Origin: a virus
Direction: 5' to 3' (one strand)
DNA length: 64,000 nt
Virus record (IMG/VR): IMGVR_UViG_2842363717_000002
Span: 14 to 64,013 of that record
In this document: piece by piece, positions 6,635 through 59,132 of the stretch
Position numbering within the stretch: position 1 is the first letter of the stretch
Layout: every line of letters starts with the position of its first letter
Made by a program: the position numbers and the translations under genes
Notes under the pieces: generated by a model
What the model was told of the DNA's origin: nothing
Seen by the model: only the letters and a program-made list of their open reading frames with translations
Databases searched by the model: none

Positions 6635-7884
6635 GCCACCCTCCTCTGCTCTGCCGGCGCGTTGTCGTTCGCAGCATCGAGCATGGCGACCCGCACGCGC
6701 GAGATCTCGCCATATGACCGGTGATAGGTGATCGTCTGCAACGAGCGGCCGGACAGGAAGCCTGACCCGAAATGCCAGGCATCTTGCGGGATCGGCGCCT
6801 GATGGGACTCCATGATCACGCCGCCGCCTTCGGTCGCGAATTTCGACTTGTGGTGGACGTGGAATCCGTGGGCATACCGGAACATCGACGCTCCCCAGTC
6901 CTCAGCCCTGCGGTGCGCCATGATTCCCGGCATGTCCTGCAGCTTCGCCTCGTGTCCGTGGGTGGCGGAAATCATCACCTTGCCGTAGCGGCGATGGAAG
7001 AACAAAGACTTGTCCAGATCGACGATAACGCGCGGCTCGTTGCGATACCAAGCGTGAAGGAACCAAGCGATTGCTGGAGCCGTCTCCTCGTCGTGGTTTC
7101 CTTTGAGATTGCGAACCTCCACTATGGCATTATTGCGAAGAGCCGCATCAATAGTCCGGACCAACAGGCGGCCGGCGGTCTCCGTGACCTTGGTGTGCCT
7201 GCCGTCGACGTCGAGAACGTTCTTGGATCTAGATGTCCGGTTCTCGTTGTTGTCGGCATGTGTCAGGTCGCCGCCGCCAAGCACGATTGCTACACCGCTA
7301 GCCGGGGAGCGCGCTATTGCTTCCTCGATACCACGACCGATAACGCGCTCCGCAATCTTCAGATCCCAATTCTCGTCGGTCTCTTGGCTCCATGCGAACA
7401 TCCCAACGTGCCAGTCATTGCAAGGTATGAGCGTGACTAGTTCGTCCTGAACGTTTTCGGGTGCTGGCGTTGGGATAGCGGCAGGCTCATAATCAGCGAA
7501 CGCAGCCTTGAGCGTTTCGGCAATGTCGATCGCCGACGGCTCAATCCGCGTCTTCACCCACTGCTGAATCGTCCGTCCATCGGCGTCGACCAACGCCGAA
7601 ACGCCCTTTATGGTGTGCCCGACAGGCATCTCCCATTCCGGCCCTCGCTCCGGCTTCTGCTGGATGAAATCGCCGTTCGGCGTGCTCGTCACCTGGCTGA
7701 TGCGGAACCCCGGCAGCACCGGCTTAGTGCCAAGCATGCCGCGCTCTGCGGCCGCTTTCAGCCTCGAGCAAAACGTGTTGCGCGGCAGGCGGAGCAATTC
7801 GGCCGCCTGCGACTTGTTGCCGAGCGCAATGAACGCGTCGGCGGCTTCCTTGGCGAGATCGTCTGGGAGTCTGGGCGTTGGCAT
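6631..7884 (-). CDS. N-terminal HTH plus calcineurin-like phosphoesterase
   Basis: NDWH, GGDLTHAD, GNHD, HGHE, HVHH; ends AANDNAPAEQRRVA. Confidence 0.75.
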   Translation of the reverse strand: MPTPRLPDDLAKEAADAFIALGNKSQAAELLRLPRNTFCSRLKAAAERGMLGTKPVLPGFRISQVTSTPNGDFIQQKPERGPEWEMPVGHTIKGVSALVDADGRTIQQWVKTRIEPSAIDIAETLKAAFADYEPAAIPTPAPENVQDELVTLIPCNDWHVGMFAWSQETDENWDLKIAERVIGRGIEEAIARSPASGVAIVLGGGDLTHADNNENRTSRSKNVLDVDGRHTKVTETAGRLLVRTIDAALRNNAIVEVRNLKGNHDEETAPAIAWFLHAWYRNEPRVIVDLDKSLFFHRRYGKVMISATHGHEAKLQDMPGIMAHRRAEDWGASMFRYAHGFHVHHKSKFATEGGGVIMESHQAPIPQDAWHFGSGFLSGRSLQTITYHRSYGEISRVRVAMLDAANDNAPAEQRRVA

Positions 7885-8004
7885 TAGGATTCCTTACGGT
7901 TGGACATGAAGAAGCTGGTGCGCTTGAATGCGGCCATGCCCATTTCGTTGATTGCTGCCGTTACGGCCTTTGCAAGGACGGCTCGCAGTGTTTCGTCGTC
8001 CATA

Positions 8005-8442
8005 TTAACCTCCAATTATCGCCTGCGGCTCAGCCCGCTTCGGCTCTTCCCGCCCGCCGGTGCCTTCTTCGGCAAATCCCGGGCTTCCGGTCTCGCCCTG
8101 CCGCATGCCGACAGATCCGCCGTTGCCTTCAGCGCCGTCCATGGCGTTCTGCAGGTTGTTGGCCGTGGCGGTGGTGTAAGGCAGCTTGTAGTAACGCGGC
8201 GCGCCGTTGCCGCCGTCGAGCAGCACATAGATCGCCTCGTTGACGTCGATGCGCGCGCCCAGCACGGTGTAGTGGCCAGCTGGCGGCGCGGTGATGGCCG
8301 GGTGGCCGAGTGGGAGGAGCGTGGCTGGCGCCAAGATGGCGGCGACGACCGTGAGGCACAGGGCCTGCCGCTTCGTGCCGAACCATGCGACGGCGCTGGC
8401 GGCCAGCACGAAGGCTAGCCATAGGGTGATGGCGGGGCTCAT
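8005..8442 (-). CDS. membrane-anchored protein of the MotA/TolQ-like module
   Basis: Two N-terminal TM segments then a soluble domain; ATGA-coupled to the upstream ORF. Confidence 0.65.
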   Translation of the reverse strand: MSPAITLWLAFVLAASAVAWFGTKRQALCLTVVAAILAPATLLPLGHPAITAPPAGHYTVLGARIDVNEAIYVLLDGGNGAPRYYKLPYTTATANNLQNAMDGAEGNGGSVGMRQGETGSPGFAEEGTGGREEPKRAEPQAIIGG

Positions 8443-8702
8443 GGGCGGCGCGCCTTGAACACAATGGTGCTTGTGTCGATGCCACATGCACGAAAAGCTT
8501 TCCGGTAAAGCCATCCGACAAAGATCAGGACTCCCACGATGAGGTTGAGCGGGCCGGCCAACGCCAAGAGCGAAAAGAAGCCGATGTCGCCGATATCAAC
8601 ATCAAGCGGCGAAGAGCCTCTCCTCCATAGAAATTCTACGGCCAGCATCGACCCCATAGCGCCACTAAAAATCCATGCAGTAACTGTAACGAATATTTCC
8701 AT
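8439..8702 (-). CDS. small 2-TM membrane protein
   Basis: Hydrophobic 87 aa ORF coupled to its neighbours. Confidence 0.65.
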   Translation of the reverse strand: MEIFVTVTAWIFSGAMGSMLAVEFLWRRGSSPLDVDIGDIGFFSLLALAGPLNLIVGVLIFVGWLYRKAFRACGIDTSTIVFKARRP

Positions 8703-9244
8703 TACCCCTCACCCCTCTTCATCTGTTTGAAAACCTGCGACGCCGAACCAGGTACAACCTGCCCGCCGGCCATGCGAAAACGAATTGCTGTTCTCTCGGA
8801 CTTATCCTTCAGCAGATCGACCGTGCCTTTCCAGATCACGCCGCCCTCGGCCAGCCGAACCTCGACGGACACTGGAACCGGCACCTTGGCGCAGCCGAAG
8901 CAGCGAACGTTGACGGCGTATTCGCCGTCCGGGAGGCCGCGCGTGAACGCGGACTCGAAGTTCAACGGCGTGTCATCGTTGGCCGTGCCGAGATCGTCTC
9001 GCAGCAGCGACCAAACGCGGCCGCTCTTGTTGCTGTAGCCGACGGCGAGATCGTCACCGGCCTGCACCCACAAATCGACGTCAGTGGATCCGGCCGGCCA
9101 CGCGATCGACGCGACGAGGTTGCCGGGCAGCTGGGCGGGGTCATCTTTTGCGGCCGGGTTGACCGATGGCAGAACAAGCATGACGATCGCGATAACCGCC
9201 ATAAGCATTGCCAGCAGCGTATCTTGGATGAGCGTCCTGATCAT
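8702..9244 (-). CDS. ExbD/TolR/MotB-like partner: single TM with Asp plus periplasmic beta domain
   Basis: MIRTLIQDTLLAMLMAVIAIVMLVL; DVDLWV, GEYAVNV beta-sandwich pattern. Confidence 0.55.
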   Translation of the reverse strand: MIRTLIQDTLLAMLMAVIAIVMLVLPSVNPAAKDDPAQLPGNLVASIAWPAGSTDVDLWVQAGDDLAVGYSNKSGRVWSLLRDDLGTANDDTPLNFESAFTRGLPDGEYAVNVRCFGCAKVPVPVSVEVRLAEGGVIWKGTVDLLKDKSERTAIRFRMAGGQVVPGSASQVFKQMKRGEG

Positions 9245-9711
9245 TCGCTCGCATCCATTCGCAGCACATATGCCACCGTCCCCATCCAAGTCGCTGCCAC
9301 GGCGCCGACGAGCGTCGAGCAGAAAGCAACGCTAAGGCCGTCAATCAGAGACATTGACATCTTGAGGAGGCCGGCCGCGCTGGACATGTCGCCGGCAGAT
9401 AGCCCGCTAGCCAACACCAGGAAGCCAACCAGATTTCCTATAAGCCCGATCATTACGGCCCAGACCTTCGCGTGCGGCAGGACGCGGGTGTGGCCAGCGA
9501 AGACGGAGACCAAGACGGAAACCAGCAGAGCGCTGATGATGTAAGACAGCCCGCTGATGTCATGCGTAAACACGAACTGCGTGTAGCCCTGCACAGATGC
9601 CCAGACGACGAGAGCGGCCCAGCAGGTGTTGAGGATGATGAGGCGGGCGGTCATTGCTCGCCGTGTGGCGGCTTCGTATCCAAGCCTGTCATTGTAGCGG
9701 TCGACCATCAC
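9241..9711 (-). CDS. MotA/TolQ/ExbB proton-channel-like membrane protein
   Basis: IGLIGNLVGF and GLSVAFCSTLVG match the last two channel helices of this family. Confidence 0.65.
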   Translation of the reverse strand: MMVDRYNDRLGYEAATRRAMTARLIILNTCWAALVVWASVQGYTQFVFTHDISGLSYIISALLVSVLVSVFAGHTRVLPHAKVWAVMIGLIGNLVGFLVLASGLSAGDMSSAAGLLKMSMSLIDGLSVAFCSTLVGAVAATWMGTVAYVLRMDASE

Positions 9712-10412
9712 GAAGCCCTCCGCGCCAACAGATCACACACAACCGAAGCCGGAACCACGAAGCCGAAGCCCGTCATGGTTGGGGTGTAGCTGTCGCCGCC
9801 ATACCAGTTCTTGCCCTTCAGCGGAGCGAGCGTAACGCCTACATTAATGCCGACCACGCGACCATCGTTCGCAAACACGCCGCCACCGCTTTGCCCCATT
9901 ACCGTTGTCATGTCGGTGACAATGACGCGCTTCCACGGTCCTGTCTGGCGGCCAGTGCCGGCGACGCGGCCGAAGGATGCAATGAATTCCATGCCAAGGG
10001 GATTGCCGATCGCTTGCAACTGCTCGCCGAAGCGCGGCTCGCGGCAATCGAGCTCGCTCGAGCCGGAGACGTTGCCGTCGGTGTGGATCAGCGCGACATC
10101 ATAGTCCTTGTTGACCCAAAGCACCGCCGCGTCGTCTTCCGTGCCGGCGAGCGTCTTGATCTTGACTGTCTTCTGGTCGCCGACGACATGGGCCGCGGTG
10201 AGAATGTTGCCGCCGCCGATATGAACGCCGGAGCCGAGGCCGTCGGCGACGGAAATCTTGACGGCCGAATCTTCCGAGGTCGTCGGCACTGCCTGGACGA
10301 TGGTGTTGGTGATGGTGGTTTGGACGGTATTGGGAACGGCGATGGCAACGCCACCAACGATCACGATGGCAAACGCCAGAATGGCAATGCTCATGAATCT
10401 GTAAAATCTCAT
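9708..10412 (-). CDS. secreted trypsin-like serine protease
   Basis: Signal-like N-terminus; GSGVHIG, LTAAHVV, DVAL, GQSGGGVF; AGGAGG RBS. Confidence 0.85.
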   Translation of the reverse strand: MRFYRFMSIAILAFAIVIVGGVAIAVPNTVQTTITNTIVQAVPTTSEDSAVKISVADGLGSGVHIGGGNILTAAHVVGDQKTVKIKTLAGTEDDAAVLWVNKDYDVALIHTDGNVSGSSELDCREPRFGEQLQAIGNPLGMEFIASFGRVAGTGRQTGPWKRVIVTDMTTVMGQSGGGVFANDGRVVGINVGVTLAPLKGKNWYGGDSYTPTMTGFGFVVPASVVCDLLARRAS

Positions 10413-10501
10413 AAACGCCTCCTCTATGTGGTGAATGAGGAGCGGCTTGGTGGGCCGCGCAAACTGCTTTGGTGGGCAGTGTTTGCAGAGTGGGGTCAAT
10501 T

Positions 10502-10515
10502 TACAAATTTGTCAA
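10502..10515 (-). promoter_or_regulatory. phage promoter/operator TTGACAAATTTGTA (copy 1 of 8)
   Basis: Contains palindrome ACAAATTTGT fused to a TTGACA -35 box; heads the accessory operon. Confidence 0.7.
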
Positions 10516-10557
10516 TGAGCACTTGCGCGGCGACATGTAGAACATTATAAGAACCTC

Positions 10558-10791
10558 ATGAGGTTTATCGAAATCAAAAACTGGACGCCTGGGTATCTGA
10601 ACGTCACGCCACAGCACGTCACGATCCTTGCCGCCTGCGTTGTCTGCGGGTCGGAACGGGAATTTGATAGATGCGCCGTGCCGGTTGATGCCAAGCACGC
10701 GCTGATCGTCGATATCGAGGCGCGCCTTCGTTGCGCAGCCTGCGGCGCCAGGGCCGGTCGTTTGCGTTTCGGCAGCTATGCAGAAGACTGA
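10558..10791 (+). CDS. small Zn-ribbon moron protein
   Basis: CVVC...CAAC; opposite orientation to the late genes. Confidence 0.6.
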   Translation: MRFIEIKNWTPGYLNVTPQHVTILAACVVCGSEREFDRCAVPVDAKHALIVDIEARLRCAACGARAGRLRFGSYAED

Positions 10792-10794
10792 AAC

Positions 10795-10830
10795 GAAAAA
10801 AGCGCCCTCCCCTTAACCGGGGAGGGCGCT
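10795..10830 (-). terminator. intrinsic terminator
   Basis: 12-bp stem AGCGCCCTCCCC/GGGGAGGGCGCT with a U-tract on the minus strand. Confidence 0.75.
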
Positions 10831-10868
10831 TCGGAAAGTTTATGCCACCCACTGAGGCGGTAATGGAT

Positions 10869-11082: not shown

Positions 11083-13641
11083 CTATGCTACCTGCGGCAA
11101 GATCGGATGGTTGACGTCGCGTGCCAGCAGCTTCGTCCGCAGCGTGGTATAGTCCACGTTCTGCACCTCAACGTTACCATCGATCGCCATGGAAGCCATG
11201 ACGCCAGCAGCCTCGCCTTTCAGGCCTCCGGTTGGCTCAAGGCGCCCCATGTACCAGCAGAGGATCGTCTGCGAAGACGCCCACGGCACGATAACGTTCG
11301 TCTTTGTCGCCACATCCGGAACGATTTCCTCGAGAGGAATCGGTGCTATCTTGTCGACACCAGCCACAAGGCCACCAGGAACAGAGCCCTGAGTATAGAG
11401 AAGGCCGCCTGATGCCACTTTCCAGGCTGGATGCTTGTCGCAGTCGTAGGATGTTACCGCCACAGTCTTGAGAGACCGCGGCGTAGATCCATCCGTCTTG
11501 CAGTAGTCCTGAGCCGTCGAGACGTAGCCGGTGTTCTTCAGGCGCCATATCGGATCACGCTGATACGGGCGGTTCGGCCAGAACAGAAGCCCACCCGGTC
11601 CAGGATTGAGGAACGTGCCAGCATCAAGGCCAAGAGCTTGGAACTGTGTGACGAGCGTTGATGGAATGCGGCTGTCGCCGGAGTTCGCGTGCCACCAGAA
11701 CCAGCCGAGCTGATAGTCTCTTAGATCGTCAATGACGGCCAGCTGGGCAGCCCTGTTTGCCGCCGTAGCGTATCGATAGCCACTGCCCGGCAAGTCCGTA
11801 GACAGGCCGCCGGAGCCATTGTTGACGTCCATCTTGTTTGTTGTGCCGCCAACGGCAAACTGCAGAATGGTCGTTGTAACGGCAGGGTTGCCGATCGTCA
11901 CGCCGGTATTGGTGACATACGCGCGCCCTGCAGTCTCGTAGCGCAGCGGGTTGTAGTTCCGATGCGGGTCTATGGTCGTGACCGGAACCAAGCGCGCCGG
12001 GTCCGTCGTCATCGCCAAGCGGTAGTTCATGCTCTGAATCGAAGGATCGGGGCCGTCCAAAGTCAGGCCTGGGAGCGGCATAGTGCCCTGAATATCCGGA
12101 AGCAGGCCGGATCCAGAATTGCCAGCCACGATATATGGATCGATATCAGAGCCATAGGGCTTGCTCAGAGCGGTGGAGCCCTTGTAGCCGTTGTTAGCTT
12201 CAGAACCAGATCCAGCCGCCTCACTTCCGGTGAAGGTGGGCATGCCTGGCGACTTGTGAATGTATTCGCCGTCGTAGTCCGCAGCAATGAACTGCCGAGC
12301 CGTGAACGTCCGGCCATCGTTCGTAACAAGGGACGTGTCTTTCTGTCCGGCAGAGGTGATATAGCCAATGCCCGTCGAGAAGTAGACCGGTATATCCTGC
12401 CCGAGGATGAGCGTTCCATTCTGCCGTGTCGGGTCGAGCATGCGACGAACACCACACACGAACTGCCAACTTTCAACGGAGTTGCCAGTCTGCGTGTTCG
12501 TATCGGCGCGGTTGATGATCGCGCTGTTTACCCATGACGTGAGGTCTCGATAAAGACCCTTGAGCGCCGTGAAGTTGTAGCAGTCCACATAGGCCAGACC
12601 GGACGCCGGCATCCCGCCGATATCCCAATCGGTCTTCGCCAGATCGTCGAGGACGATGGCAACCGTCTTGCCTTCCTGCTTGGCTGCGTAGGCAGCACAG
12701 ACCGCCGTCCAGCTGGCGCCGTAGACGAGAACATCATAGTCGGCCGTCGTCGGCGCCTTGCCGGCATGGTAATAGTTCACCGTGCCGAAGCGGATCTTGT
12801 AGTAATAATCCAGCAGAGCGGCGCTGATCTCTCGGCACTGCGCATCGGTCAACGTCACGTCGAAGATGGCGAACAGGCCGCAGTCGTGAGCCGATACCGC
12901 GCCACCGTTGATTCCGCCAAGGTGGATGGTCGGATTGGTGGCTGGCGCGACATAGGTTGGCGCCGGAGCCTCACGCGTGATGCCGAAGGTATCAAGGCTG
13001 TTTGGGCGGATGGAATGCATGCCCTGGCCGGGCGTGATCGTCGTCGAGGTCGATGCATAGTTCGCGGCCTGCAAGCGGGCATTGAACTTGTTGGACGCGT
13101 CCCTAACATTCGCTCCGATACCGTCGCCGCCGGCCGTCTGGGCGCCGAAGTCGCCGCCGGCGGCGCCTGTAGCCGTTCGCGAATAATAAAAGATCGTGAA
13201 CTGGCCTTGGGTGAAGCTCTGAAGTCCAATGCCGGTGTTGTATTTCGTGGTTGAGGACCAGCCGCCCCACCGGTCATTTGCCGTATAGGTTGGCACTCCG
13301 GCGCCGGTCAGTGTCAGATCGTTCGTGCCCGGGTGGAATTTGTTCAGGCGACTGTTGATCTCGGTCGGCGTGTCAGGGGTGTAGAGGCCCTTGGCATTCG
13401 ACATGCTCACGCCAGCGCCCTTGACGCGCGTGATAACTTCATCATACGCCAGCTTCTCCGAGCGGCGCATGGTGATCCCCTGCCCGGCCTTGGCCGTCTC
13501 CAGCGTCGTTGTTTCAGCTTGGAAAACGAAATCCGGCAGAGGGGTGCCGATTACGCCGCCAGGCAGCGCAATGGCACCTCCCAAGGCGATGATGGCGACG
13601 AGCGACGCCCCTCGCCTCAAACTCGATTTGAGCCCCGCCAT
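11083..13641 (-). CDS. large protein: beta-rich N-terminal domain plus FAD-dependent oxidoreductase-like domain
   Basis: YDVLVYGASWTAVCAAYAAKQEGKTVAIV, IGGM.ASGL, FIAADYDGE, RLEP. Confidence 0.6.
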   Translation of the reverse strand: MAGLKSSLRRGASLVAIIALGGAIALPGGVIGTPLPDFVFQAETTTLETAKAGQGITMRRSEKLAYDEVITRVKGAGVSMSNAKGLYTPDTPTEINSRLNKFHPGTNDLTLTGAGVPTYTANDRWGGWSSTTKYNTGIGLQSFTQGQFTIFYYSRTATGAAGGDFGAQTAGGDGIGANVRDASNKFNARLQAANYASTSTTITPGQGMHSIRPNSLDTFGITREAPAPTYVAPATNPTIHLGGINGGAVSAHDCGLFAIFDVTLTDAQCREISAALLDYYYKIRFGTVNYYHAGKAPTTADYDVLVYGASWTAVCAAYAAKQEGKTVAIVLDDLAKTDWDIGGMPASGLAYVDCYNFTALKGLYRDLTSWVNSAIINRADTNTQTGNSVESWQFVCGVRRMLDPTRQNGTLILGQDIPVYFSTGIGYITSAGQKDTSLVTNDGRTFTARQFIAADYDGEYIHKSPGMPTFTGSEAAGSGSEANNGYKGSTALSKPYGSDIDPYIVAGNSGSGLLPDIQGTMPLPGLTLDGPDPSIQSMNYRLAMTTDPARLVPVTTIDPHRNYNPLRYETAGRAYVTNTGVTIGNPAVTTTILQFAVGGTTNKMDVNNGSGGLSTDLPGSGYRYATAANRAAQLAVIDDLRDYQLGWFWWHANSGDSRIPSTLVTQFQALGLDAGTFLNPGPGGLLFWPNRPYQRDPIWRLKNTGYVSTAQDYCKTDGSTPRSLKTVAVTSYDCDKHPAWKVASGGLLYTQGSVPGGLVAGVDKIAPIPLEEIVPDVATKTNVIVPWASSQTILCWYMGRLEPTGGLKGEAAGVMASMAIDGNVEVQNVDYTTLRTKLLARDVNHPILPQVA

Positions 13642-13642
13642 G

Positions 13643-13957
13643 TTACGCGGCGATCCACTGGAACTTGTCGTTCGGCTCGGCGTAGACGTCGTAATCCGTG
13701 GCCGCCGGCACGAGAAAGCGCTTGCCGGTCGTTGCATCCGGCGTCGGACCTACCGACACCCACGAGTCCGCAGCGGCACGAATGCGAAACATCGCCTGGC
13801 CAGAGCCAGAGTTTTCGCCTGGTGCAGAATTGGTGGATGTGACTCCGGTGGCCGGCGCCTCGCTCCACGCGATCTTGCCGAGGATGGCCTGAGACTTGTC
13901 TCGAGCGAAAAGAGAGCCGGGATAACCGCAAACGACATGAAGGCCTGAGAAAGCCAT
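13643..13957 (-). CDS. phage hypothetical protein
   Basis: GGAGAC RBS with CCACCAC motif. Confidence 0.7.
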   Translation of the reverse strand: MAFSGLHVVCGYPGSLFARDKSQAILGKIAWSEAPATGVTSTNSAPGENSGSGQAMFRIRAAADSWVSVGPTPDATTGKRFLVPAATDYDVYAEPNDKFQWIAA

Positions 13958-27899: not shown

Positions 27900-27936
27900 A
27901 AAACCTCCAGATATGTGAGTATACCTAGTGTCGTTT

Positions 27937-27950
27937 TACAAATTTGTCAA
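27937..27950 (-). promoter_or_regulatory. TTGACAAATTTGTA motif (copy 2)
   Basis: Directly upstream of the HNH gene. Confidence 0.65.
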
Positions 27951-48501: not shown

Positions 48502-48551
48502 TGGCGTCTCCTCACGTGGTGTAATTTGGTAGCTTCACCGTGGCGTCAATT

Positions 48552-48565
48552 TACAAATTTGTCAA
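48552..48565 (-). promoter_or_regulatory. TTGACAAATTTGTA motif (copy 6)
   Basis: 22 bp identical to copy 1 (ATTGACAAATTTGTAAATTGAC). Confidence 0.7.
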
Positions 48566-59050: not shown

Positions 59051-59118
59051 GTCGTCTCCTCTGTGGTGGGATTGGCAGGCGGTGAACTTGCCAATTGATG
59101 GTCATAATGTTATCGATT

Positions 59119-59132
59119 TACAAATTTGTCAA
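59119..59132 (-). promoter_or_regulatory. TTGACAAATTTGTA motif (copy 7), main early promoter
   Basis: TTGACA-N17-CATTAT; between the early operon and the divergent repressor. Confidence 0.72.

Follow-up and report, generated by a model that had tools for sequence, protein, structure and literature searches.

The analysed window comprises 64,000 nucleotides (nt) of the IMG/VR virus record IMGVR_UViG_2842363717_000002 (positions 14 to 64,013) and consists of phage DNA related to phage 16-3, with an identity of 75% to Rhizobium phage RHph_TM3_3_14B across 64% of the region. Since a recorded contig of 481 kb encodes the exact proteins of the window, the source of the window is most likely a Rhizobium prophage. 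Preceded by genes for a tail fibre and an endolysin, the minus strand carries a run of five genes extending from position 10412 down to 8005, each overlapping its neighbour by 1 or 4 nt. An earlier note on this DNA had recognised the overlapping arrangement and had interpreted the run as one coupled unit consisting of a secreted serine protease, a channel protein of the MotA/TolQ type, its Asp-bearing partner and two further membrane proteins. Our analysis identifies three of these proteins, termed A, B and C, as a conserved trio that is shared between phages and cellular genomes and that probably forms an ion-driven machine of the inner membrane. In the order of transcription, the genes encode the following proteins (lengths in amino acids, aa):

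9708-10412, minus strand, protease of 234 aa, matching Trypsin_2 (5e-23) and phrog_9683 (5e-52)
9241-9708, minus strand, A subunit of 155 aa, a divergent four-helix protein of the MotA/ExbB/ZorA type
8702-9244, minus strand, B subunit of 180 aa, with an N-terminal transmembrane (TM) helix containing Asp8 and a TerD/DUF2135-like beta-sandwich
8439-8702, minus strand, two-helix membrane protein of 87 aa (gene 4), without family match
8005-8442, minus strand, C subunit of 145 aa (gene 5), with two N-terminal hydrophobic helices and without known family

The run is preceded by a GAGGAGG ribosome site. The ATG of A shares a single base with the stop codon of the protease, with an in-frame GTG at 9711 and a GGAGG located 6-7 nt upstream, and the following junctions consist of an ATGA overlap between A and B, a 1-nt overlap between B and the two-helix gene and a second ATGA overlap between the latter and C. 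The coupling does not end at position 8005 but continues into a small open reading frame (ORF) of about 39 aa (7884-8003, minus strand), which has its own GGAGG site, begins 2 nt past the stop codon of C and directly borders the gene of a phrog_704 exonuclease, which is in turn followed by genes of nucleotide metabolism. Gene overlap by itself thus does not delimit the functional unit.

Its boundaries emerge from a comparison of 116 loci, which include 33 phage or viral loci found via A and 83 found via B, the latter comprising 80 detected by scanning species genomes and three retrieved by looking up the exact sequences of distant homologues of B. In this set, A is located immediately upstream of B in 113 loci, with the three exceptions being cut by contig ends, and all three genes A, B and C are present in 109. 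The gene for C, which accompanies the pair in these 109 of the 116 loci, usually overlaps B by 4 nt, whereas the protease is found in 40 loci and homologues of the two-helix gene in only five, where it appears as a sporadic insert outside of the conserved core. By the comparison of gene content, it is thus the A-B-C trio and not the set of five genes that constitutes the conserved functional unit, and the initial grouping holds for A, B and C but not for the protease and the two-helix protein.

The survey of gene neighbourhoods, which had been named as a check of the earlier interpretation, has found the genes together in other phages, and the description of the A-B pair as phage-borne and uncharacterised agrees with our results. 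The trio is contained in 16-3-like siphoviruses and in the virulent T4-like rhizobiophages P10VF (genes 191-193) and RHph_N3_19 (genes 065-067), where it is surrounded by genes of replication and other aspects of DNA metabolism. In a Denitrobaculum genome it neighbours a portal of the T7 type, which reflects a prophage, and it follows a muramidase in an unrelated phage contig of 50 kb (L035). The idea that the trio would always be phage-borne was rejected, as a long form, distinguished by an insert of about 50 aa in A, is surrounded by common cellular genes in the genomes of many Alphaproteobacteria. Around 24 distant loci, the 48 largest neighbouring genes mostly encode housekeeping functions, with examples including SHMT, RsmB, LysR, CobT and TonB-dependent receptors, and in one Rhodospirillales chromosome the trio is flanked by an FMN reductase on one side and by a gene with a weak cytochrome c-like match on the other. 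All-against-all clustering of the flanking ORFs did not reveal a consistently linked further gene. That virulent phages carry the trio close to genes of replication and other DNA metabolism, and that it resides in chromosomal settings unrelated to phages, argues against a purely lysogeny-specific role.

Protein A contains the two segments highlighted in the earlier note, GLIGNLVG at residues 88-95 and GLSVAFCSTLVG at residues 124-135. Its AlphaFold model (with a predicted local distance difference test score, pLDDT, of 87) displays four TM helices and ends 7 residues past TM4. As the loop connecting TM2 and TM3 consists of only about 6 residues, the protein is predicted to be devoid of a cytoplasmic domain. 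None of the 34 phage-type copies of A carries an insert at this position, which has a median length of 50 residues in genome-derived copies, and judged by this alignment phage A is a minimised version of the long form. On the level of sequence, all 28 relatives of A match PF01618 (best 9e-6) and long-form relatives, which are detected by the A profile at 1e-15 to 1e-23, score 36.6 and 33.6 bits compared to a curated cut-off of 22.9. Some homologues are already automatically named 'MotA/TolQ/ExbB proton channel family protein'. A search of PDB sequences with the A-family profile resulted in eight weak matches, seven of which, including the top six, are ZorA or MotA proteins, and matches to ZorA in PADLOC are marginal (E 0.008-0.4). 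On the level of structure, re-alignment of the candidates from Foldseek has placed 22 chains of ZorA, ExbB and TolQ on top for the A model, with Z scores of 11.3 (111 residues, 3.2 Å) and 11.0 for ZorA, 10.4 for ExbB and 10.3 for TolQ. A Foldseek-independent search of 48,161 chains with the same model has equally returned ZorA and MotA as the best six matches (Z 11.3 to 8.0). In these fold alignments the identity to solved host-type proteins amounts to 12-21%. Based on the combined evidence from fold and sequence, we accept A as a member of the MotA/TolQ/ExbB/ZorA superfamily, as had been proposed, and the structural comparison that was meant to probe this assignment has recovered the expected fold.

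The GxxGT motif of TM3 and the Thr of TM4 are conserved across the A family. In the window, GLIGN (residues 88-92) replaces the canonical GxxGT, which positions Asn92 at the place of the usual channel Thr, in line with a remark in the earlier note, and the pair Ser131-Thr132 is retained in TM4, the last helix. Among the 106 relatives showing the motif, the last position is occupied by Thr in 74 and by Asn in 32 cases, the latter belonging to a Rhizobium-phage subclade that includes this window; phage 16-3 itself has Thr. The motif is thus an ancestral trait of the family that has been substituted in the lineage of the window. A co-variation of this residue with the B helix was sought, and the observed pattern tracks phylogeny and is thus uninformative.

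Protein B shows the features of an Asp-helix partner, with a single N-terminal TM helix (residues 1-27), a conserved Asp in this helix and a gene directly following A. The previously noted QDTLLAM is found at residues 7-13 and its Asp8, which is invariant in close relatives, is conserved in 118 of the 120 sequences in an alignment that covers all loci. The context of this residue ('RDV.xL.L') resembles the equivalent helix of ExbD and TolR, and the claim that gene 3 encodes the single-helix partner of A is thus borne out. The helix is followed by a linker of about 12 residues and a beta-sandwich (pLDDT of the model 86), which does not adopt the ExbD/TolR fold and is not an OmpA-like peptidoglycan-binding domain. 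Instead, residues 39-177 (approximately) superimpose on the TerD crystal structures 3ibz, 2qng and 2qz7 with Z scores of 11.2, 10.4 and 10.0 over 130-136 residues. The fourth entry of this search (Z 8.8) is an integrative model and not a crystal structure, and no other fold exceeds a Z score of 7.8. In the AlphaFold database, the nearest clusters are named DUF2135 (best E 2.8e-11). On the level of sequence, B does not match any family in Pfam, NCBIfam, PADLOC or the PDB, and a comparison of 26 members of the B family with the TerD and DUF2135 entries of Pfam did not yield a match at E values up to 10. The family is large, encompassing 1587 clusters at 50% identity (E up to 1e-3). An acidic cluster consisting of D55, D57, D83, D84, D90, N95 and E97 is invariant even in distant members. 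It is reminiscent of a Ca-binding site and, by analogy to TerD, suggests a putative metal site.

The third component, C, had been described as a TM-anchored protein, whereas we find two N-terminal hydrophobic segments that are separated by a basic loop. These are followed by a conserved small alpha/beta domain of about 60 residues with the pattern V-L-G ... I-Y ... P-R-x-Y-x-L-P ... A-x-x-L, which, in light of the positive-inside rule, would be located in the periplasm, and by a flexible tail, which is Gly/Glu-rich in the window and becomes Pro-rich at the C-terminus of long forms only. Profile searches of Pfam and of PDB sequences did not provide a credible match for C, and the protein does not carry a name in the Atlas. 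Similarly, the two-helix protein encoded by gene 4 is without family match in the profile libraries searched.

The product of the first gene is a trypsin-like serine peptidase with an N-terminal signal, as initially described. It matches PF13365 (Trypsin_2), contains the catalytic triad His75/Asp105/Ser175 and corresponds to the core of HtrA/DegP-type proteases without a PDZ domain. Its N-terminal hydrophobic segment with an AIA-V site indicates that it is either signal-anchored or secreted. All but three of its 40 loci are 16-3-like viral loci, Rhizobiaceae genomes or bins of metagenome-assembled genomes (MAGs) of the rhizobiales type, which defines the protease as a lineage-specific companion of the trio. 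In 16-3-like phages, the co-translated periplasmic protease would probably act on the envelope target of the trio or on B or C.

From these properties we consider it probable, although far from certain, that the trio constitutes a three-protein inner-membrane machine of the stator type with a five-to-two (5:2) stoichiometry that is driven by ions and delivers its output to the periplasm. In MotAB, ExbBD, TolQR and ZorAB, ions pass via the Asp of the B helix that is inserted into a ring of A subunits. By analogy, a ring of the four-helix protein A would surround a dimer of the N-terminal helices of B, where the Asp8 of either helix would face the polar positions Asn92 on TM3 and Ser131/Thr132 on TM4, and the passage of protons or other cations along the A-B interface would turn A relative to B as in the mentioned systems. 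Since phage A does not contain a cytoplasmic domain, any output would have to be periplasmic. Two parts might deliver this output, the heads of B with their TerD/DUF2135-like fold and probable metal binding, and protein C, which might act as a TolA/TonB-like rider on the ring that exposes its small domain and tail to the periplasm. Our best guess concerning the role of such an assembly is an envelope-directed function during infection, which might consist of the exclusion of competing phages or the remodelling of the envelope. In a more far-reaching version, which we advance only tentatively, the virus would encode a working rotary machine of minimal A5B2 composition with exclusively periplasmic output via a metal-binding TerD-like head and the rider, and its deployment early in infection would alter the host envelope, for example to exclude rivals. 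If true, such a virus-encoded minimal motor would define a new functional class of 5:2 motors and a new kind of phage weapon.

Several observations weigh against this proposal. The A protein of the window by itself scores only 12.1 bits against PF01618 (E 0.16), which is below the threshold of Pfam, and since its close relatives match the family and long-form relatives pass this threshold, its membership is assigned by transitive homology. Z scores around 11 are for an all-helical protein in a range where a common arrangement of helices might account for the similarity. The Asn at the position of the channel Thr could reflect an altered or closed ion path. Additionally, the linker of B is short and its domain does not resemble a known peptidoglycan-binding or TonB-binding fold, C does not contain the SHLS/His motif of TolA and TonB, and the 5:2 assembly is itself drawn from analogy.

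Some of these features would also be compatible with a gated ion leak, where A and B form a channel that dissipates the membrane potential without performing mechanical work and where the beta-sandwich serves as plug or sensor. Such leak could be used for the timing of lysis, the shut-off of the host or to abort the infection by a competitor. It would account for a phage form devoid of a cytoplasmic or a long periplasmic output domain and for an Asn substitution that falls into the ion path, and it would fit to the proximity of the module to lysis genes in some phages, as found after the muramidase in L035 and after the endolysin block in the window. Prior to their activation, known stator units represent leak channels that are closed by a plug, as illustrated by MotB and PomB. 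However, a strongly conserved C with a periplasmic domain, as present in 109 of the 116 loci, would be superfluous for a simple leak, the trio is found in ordinary chromosomal settings of many free-living Alphaproteobacteria, where a depolarising device would be costly, and T4-like phages carry it among genes of replication and DNA metabolism and not among lysis genes. We thus regard the leak as unlikely.

Less probable still is a role as decoy or poison of host motors, in which the phage proteins would mix with or titrate TolQR, ExbBD or MotAB, would not assemble into a functional machine themselves and would in this way block motility or the Ton- and Tol-dependent entry of other phages and bacteriocins. 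Both systems are exploited by phages and colicins, so that interference with them would pay, and A has kept only the membrane core that is common to ExbB, TolQ and MotA of the host. Nevertheless, the trio has a dedicated Asp partner and a third subunit, which are both strongly conserved, an identity of 12-21% to solved host-type proteins would be poorly suited for the mixing of subunits, and the same three genes are found in cellular genomes outside of prophages. This distribution, together with the occurrence of the trio in virulent phages, speaks against a simple decoy. The final alternative, to which we assign a similarly small chance, is a superinfection-exclusion or anti-phage device of the Zorya kind that would sense envelope perturbation by means of a ZorAB-like motor to exclude rivals, for which ZorA as best match of A in fold and PDB sequence, the weak PADLOC matches to ZorA (E 0.008) and the residence of the cassette in temperate and virulent phages and in varied chromosomal neighbourhoods could be invoked, but which is disfavoured by the absence of a ZorA tail, of a peptidoglycan-binding ZorB domain and of ZorC/D/E-like effectors, by the lack of PADLOC matches for B and C, by sampled chromosomal neighbours that are mostly housekeeping genes and not defence islands, and by ZorA scores that are tied with those of ExbB and TolQ within about one Z unit.

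The organisation of the trio shows variations at individual loci. In RHph_TM3_3_14B, the gene of a Seg-like homing endonuclease is located between A and B (L001, 4519-5277), and in RHph_X2_25 the gene of an HNH homing endonuclease is located between B and C (L003, 3405-3947). In both cases the genes are not disrupted and the trio has thus stayed intact despite these insertions. In five loci from alphaproteobacterial MAGs (L099, L103, L104, L105 and L113), two B paralogues flank or follow A in a B-A-B arrangement that is reminiscent of ExbB-ExbD1-ExbD2 operons. A metagenomic protein of 342 aa (P0219) appears as a single chain of A and B, with an hhalign probability of 98.5% to the A family and a full B. 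It might result from read-through of the ATGA junction or represent a genuine fusion, which would be difficult to bring in line with a 5:2 stoichiometry, and we have not used this protein as evidence. Downstream of C, an ORF family of about 213 aa is found in 13 distant loci (including L051), which is the sole extra gene with recurrent linkage, and an ORF at the same position past C in L078 (5161-5811) shows a weak cytochrome c-like match in Pfam, with no single stretch passing.

The region upstream of the protease contains potential elements of transcriptional control, one of which is repeated elsewhere in the window:

10799-10832, minus strand, terminator-like hairpin of the intrinsic type, with a stem of 14 base pairs (bp) including 10 G-C pairs, and a T run
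10544-10571, minus strand, sigma-70-like promoter match TCGATA-16-TATAAT, a consensus match only, with 10 of 12 consensus positions
10495-10515, minus strand, copy 1 of 4 of a repeated 21-nt element that includes the palindrome ACAAATTTGT and precedes the start of the protease gene by 83 nt
27930-27950, 48545-48565 and 59112-59132, all minus strand, further copies of the 21-nt element found in a repeat search of the window

The strong hairpin, read from 10832 to 10799, closes the preceding late/lysis block, after the endolysin genes and a large gene of the FAD-oxidoreductase type. The latter encodes a protein of 884 aa (11083-13737, minus strand) that matches FAD_oxidored (PF12831) at 1.5e-25 and is without PHROG match; it is placed between the lysis block and the terminator of the operon. 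A perfect palindrome of 14 bp at 10552-10565 resides within the spacer of the sigma-70-like match. The copies of the 21-nt element differ by 0-2 mismatches and each is located 40-85 nt upstream of a gene start. What had been called promoter copy 1 does belong to a repeat, as its four copies in the window compare with none of 100 shuffled sequences containing a match, and its assignment as promoter has the status of a candidate: it probably acts as phage-specific promoter or operator that is common to four transcription units. On the opposite strand, an ORF of 77 aa with two CxxC pairs (10558-10791, plus strand), which resembles a zinc ribbon, is oriented divergently from the protease operon. 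It starts within the palindrome at 10552-10565, ends at the hairpin terminator and is without PHROG match.

Ion-driven motors with 5:2 stoichiometry, which include the Mot, Tol, Ton, Gld and Zorya systems, are among the best-studied prokaryotic machines and, to our knowledge, every branch that was added to them has shown the shared rotary core in a further use. The core is itself known, and what is new in the trio are the undescribed domain of B, the undescribed third subunit and the phage-minimised form. With its natural reduction to about 140-155 residues, phage A is an attractive structural target to define the minimum that is needed for ion-coupled rotation, and in the model phage 16-3 the trio (p038, p040 and p042) is a tractable target for genetics. 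If the trio acts on the envelope during infection, this would explain a conserved block of 'hypothetical' genes in rhizobiophages, including T4-like ones.

Among characterised systems, TolQ-TolR-TolA and ExbB-ExbD-TonB share with the trio the presence of three membrane proteins in the order A-B-C. The membrane core of ExbB and TolQ has the same fold as A (Z 10.4 and 10.3), ExbD and TolR resemble B in their N-terminal helix, where an Asp of the essential type is embedded in a 'D-V-x-L-x-L' context, and their output faces the periplasm as proposed for the trio, with the Pro-rich segment in long forms of C as further resemblance. In contrast to these systems, A contains four helices and its phage form is devoid of a cytoplasmic domain, the periplasmic domain of B is TerD/DUF2135-like instead of adopting the ExbD/TolR fold, and there is no linked Pal, TolB or TonB-dependent receptor partner. 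Although C holds the gene position of TolA or TonB, it is not homologous to either of them, and it contains two hydrophobic segments without a His and neither a TonB_C nor a TolA_C domain. The ZorA-ZorB complexes of Zorya (PDB 8vvn, 8vvi and 8qyd) match A best by structure and by PDB sequence and share with the trio a link to phage biology. However, A does not share the long cytoplasmic tail of ZorA and B not the peptidoglycan-binding domain of ZorB, and in place of ZorC, ZorD or ZorE, the neighbours in the window are the protease, small membrane proteins and the phrog_704 exonuclease, so that the locus does not classify as Zorya. The stators MotA-MotB and PomA-PomB resemble the trio in the four-helix architecture of A, the GxxGT-type motif of TM3, the Thr of TM4 and the Asp-bearing helix of B. 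Unlike MotA, A is missing the cytoplasmic loop of about 100 aa that contacts FliG and, unlike MotB and PomB, B has no plug and no OmpA-like domain; the trio loci are also without flagellar neighbours. With TerD and DUF2135 proteins B shares the beta-sandwich fold, with its own domain being membrane-anchored and predicted to be periplasmic compared to the cytoplasmic location of TerD proteins.

In our search of the literature on phage-encoded MotA, ExbB or TerD modules, we did not find a paper describing the trio. A survey of MotAB homologues notes many uncharacterised 'generic ion transporters', without mention of the partner described here (PMC12505986). The closest conceptual relative is found in TolQ-like pentamers with TPH-vWA partners, where a non-canonical protein with an unrelated periplasmic domain inserts an Asp-bearing transpore helix into the ring (Mol Biol Evol 2025, PMC12204202). 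These systems embody the same concept as the pair of A and B and set a precedent for a non-canonical Asp-helix partner. They differ in the domain of this partner, which is vWA instead of TerD/DUF2135-like, and the trio extends this concept by a third protein that is conserved and by a miniature form carried by phages.

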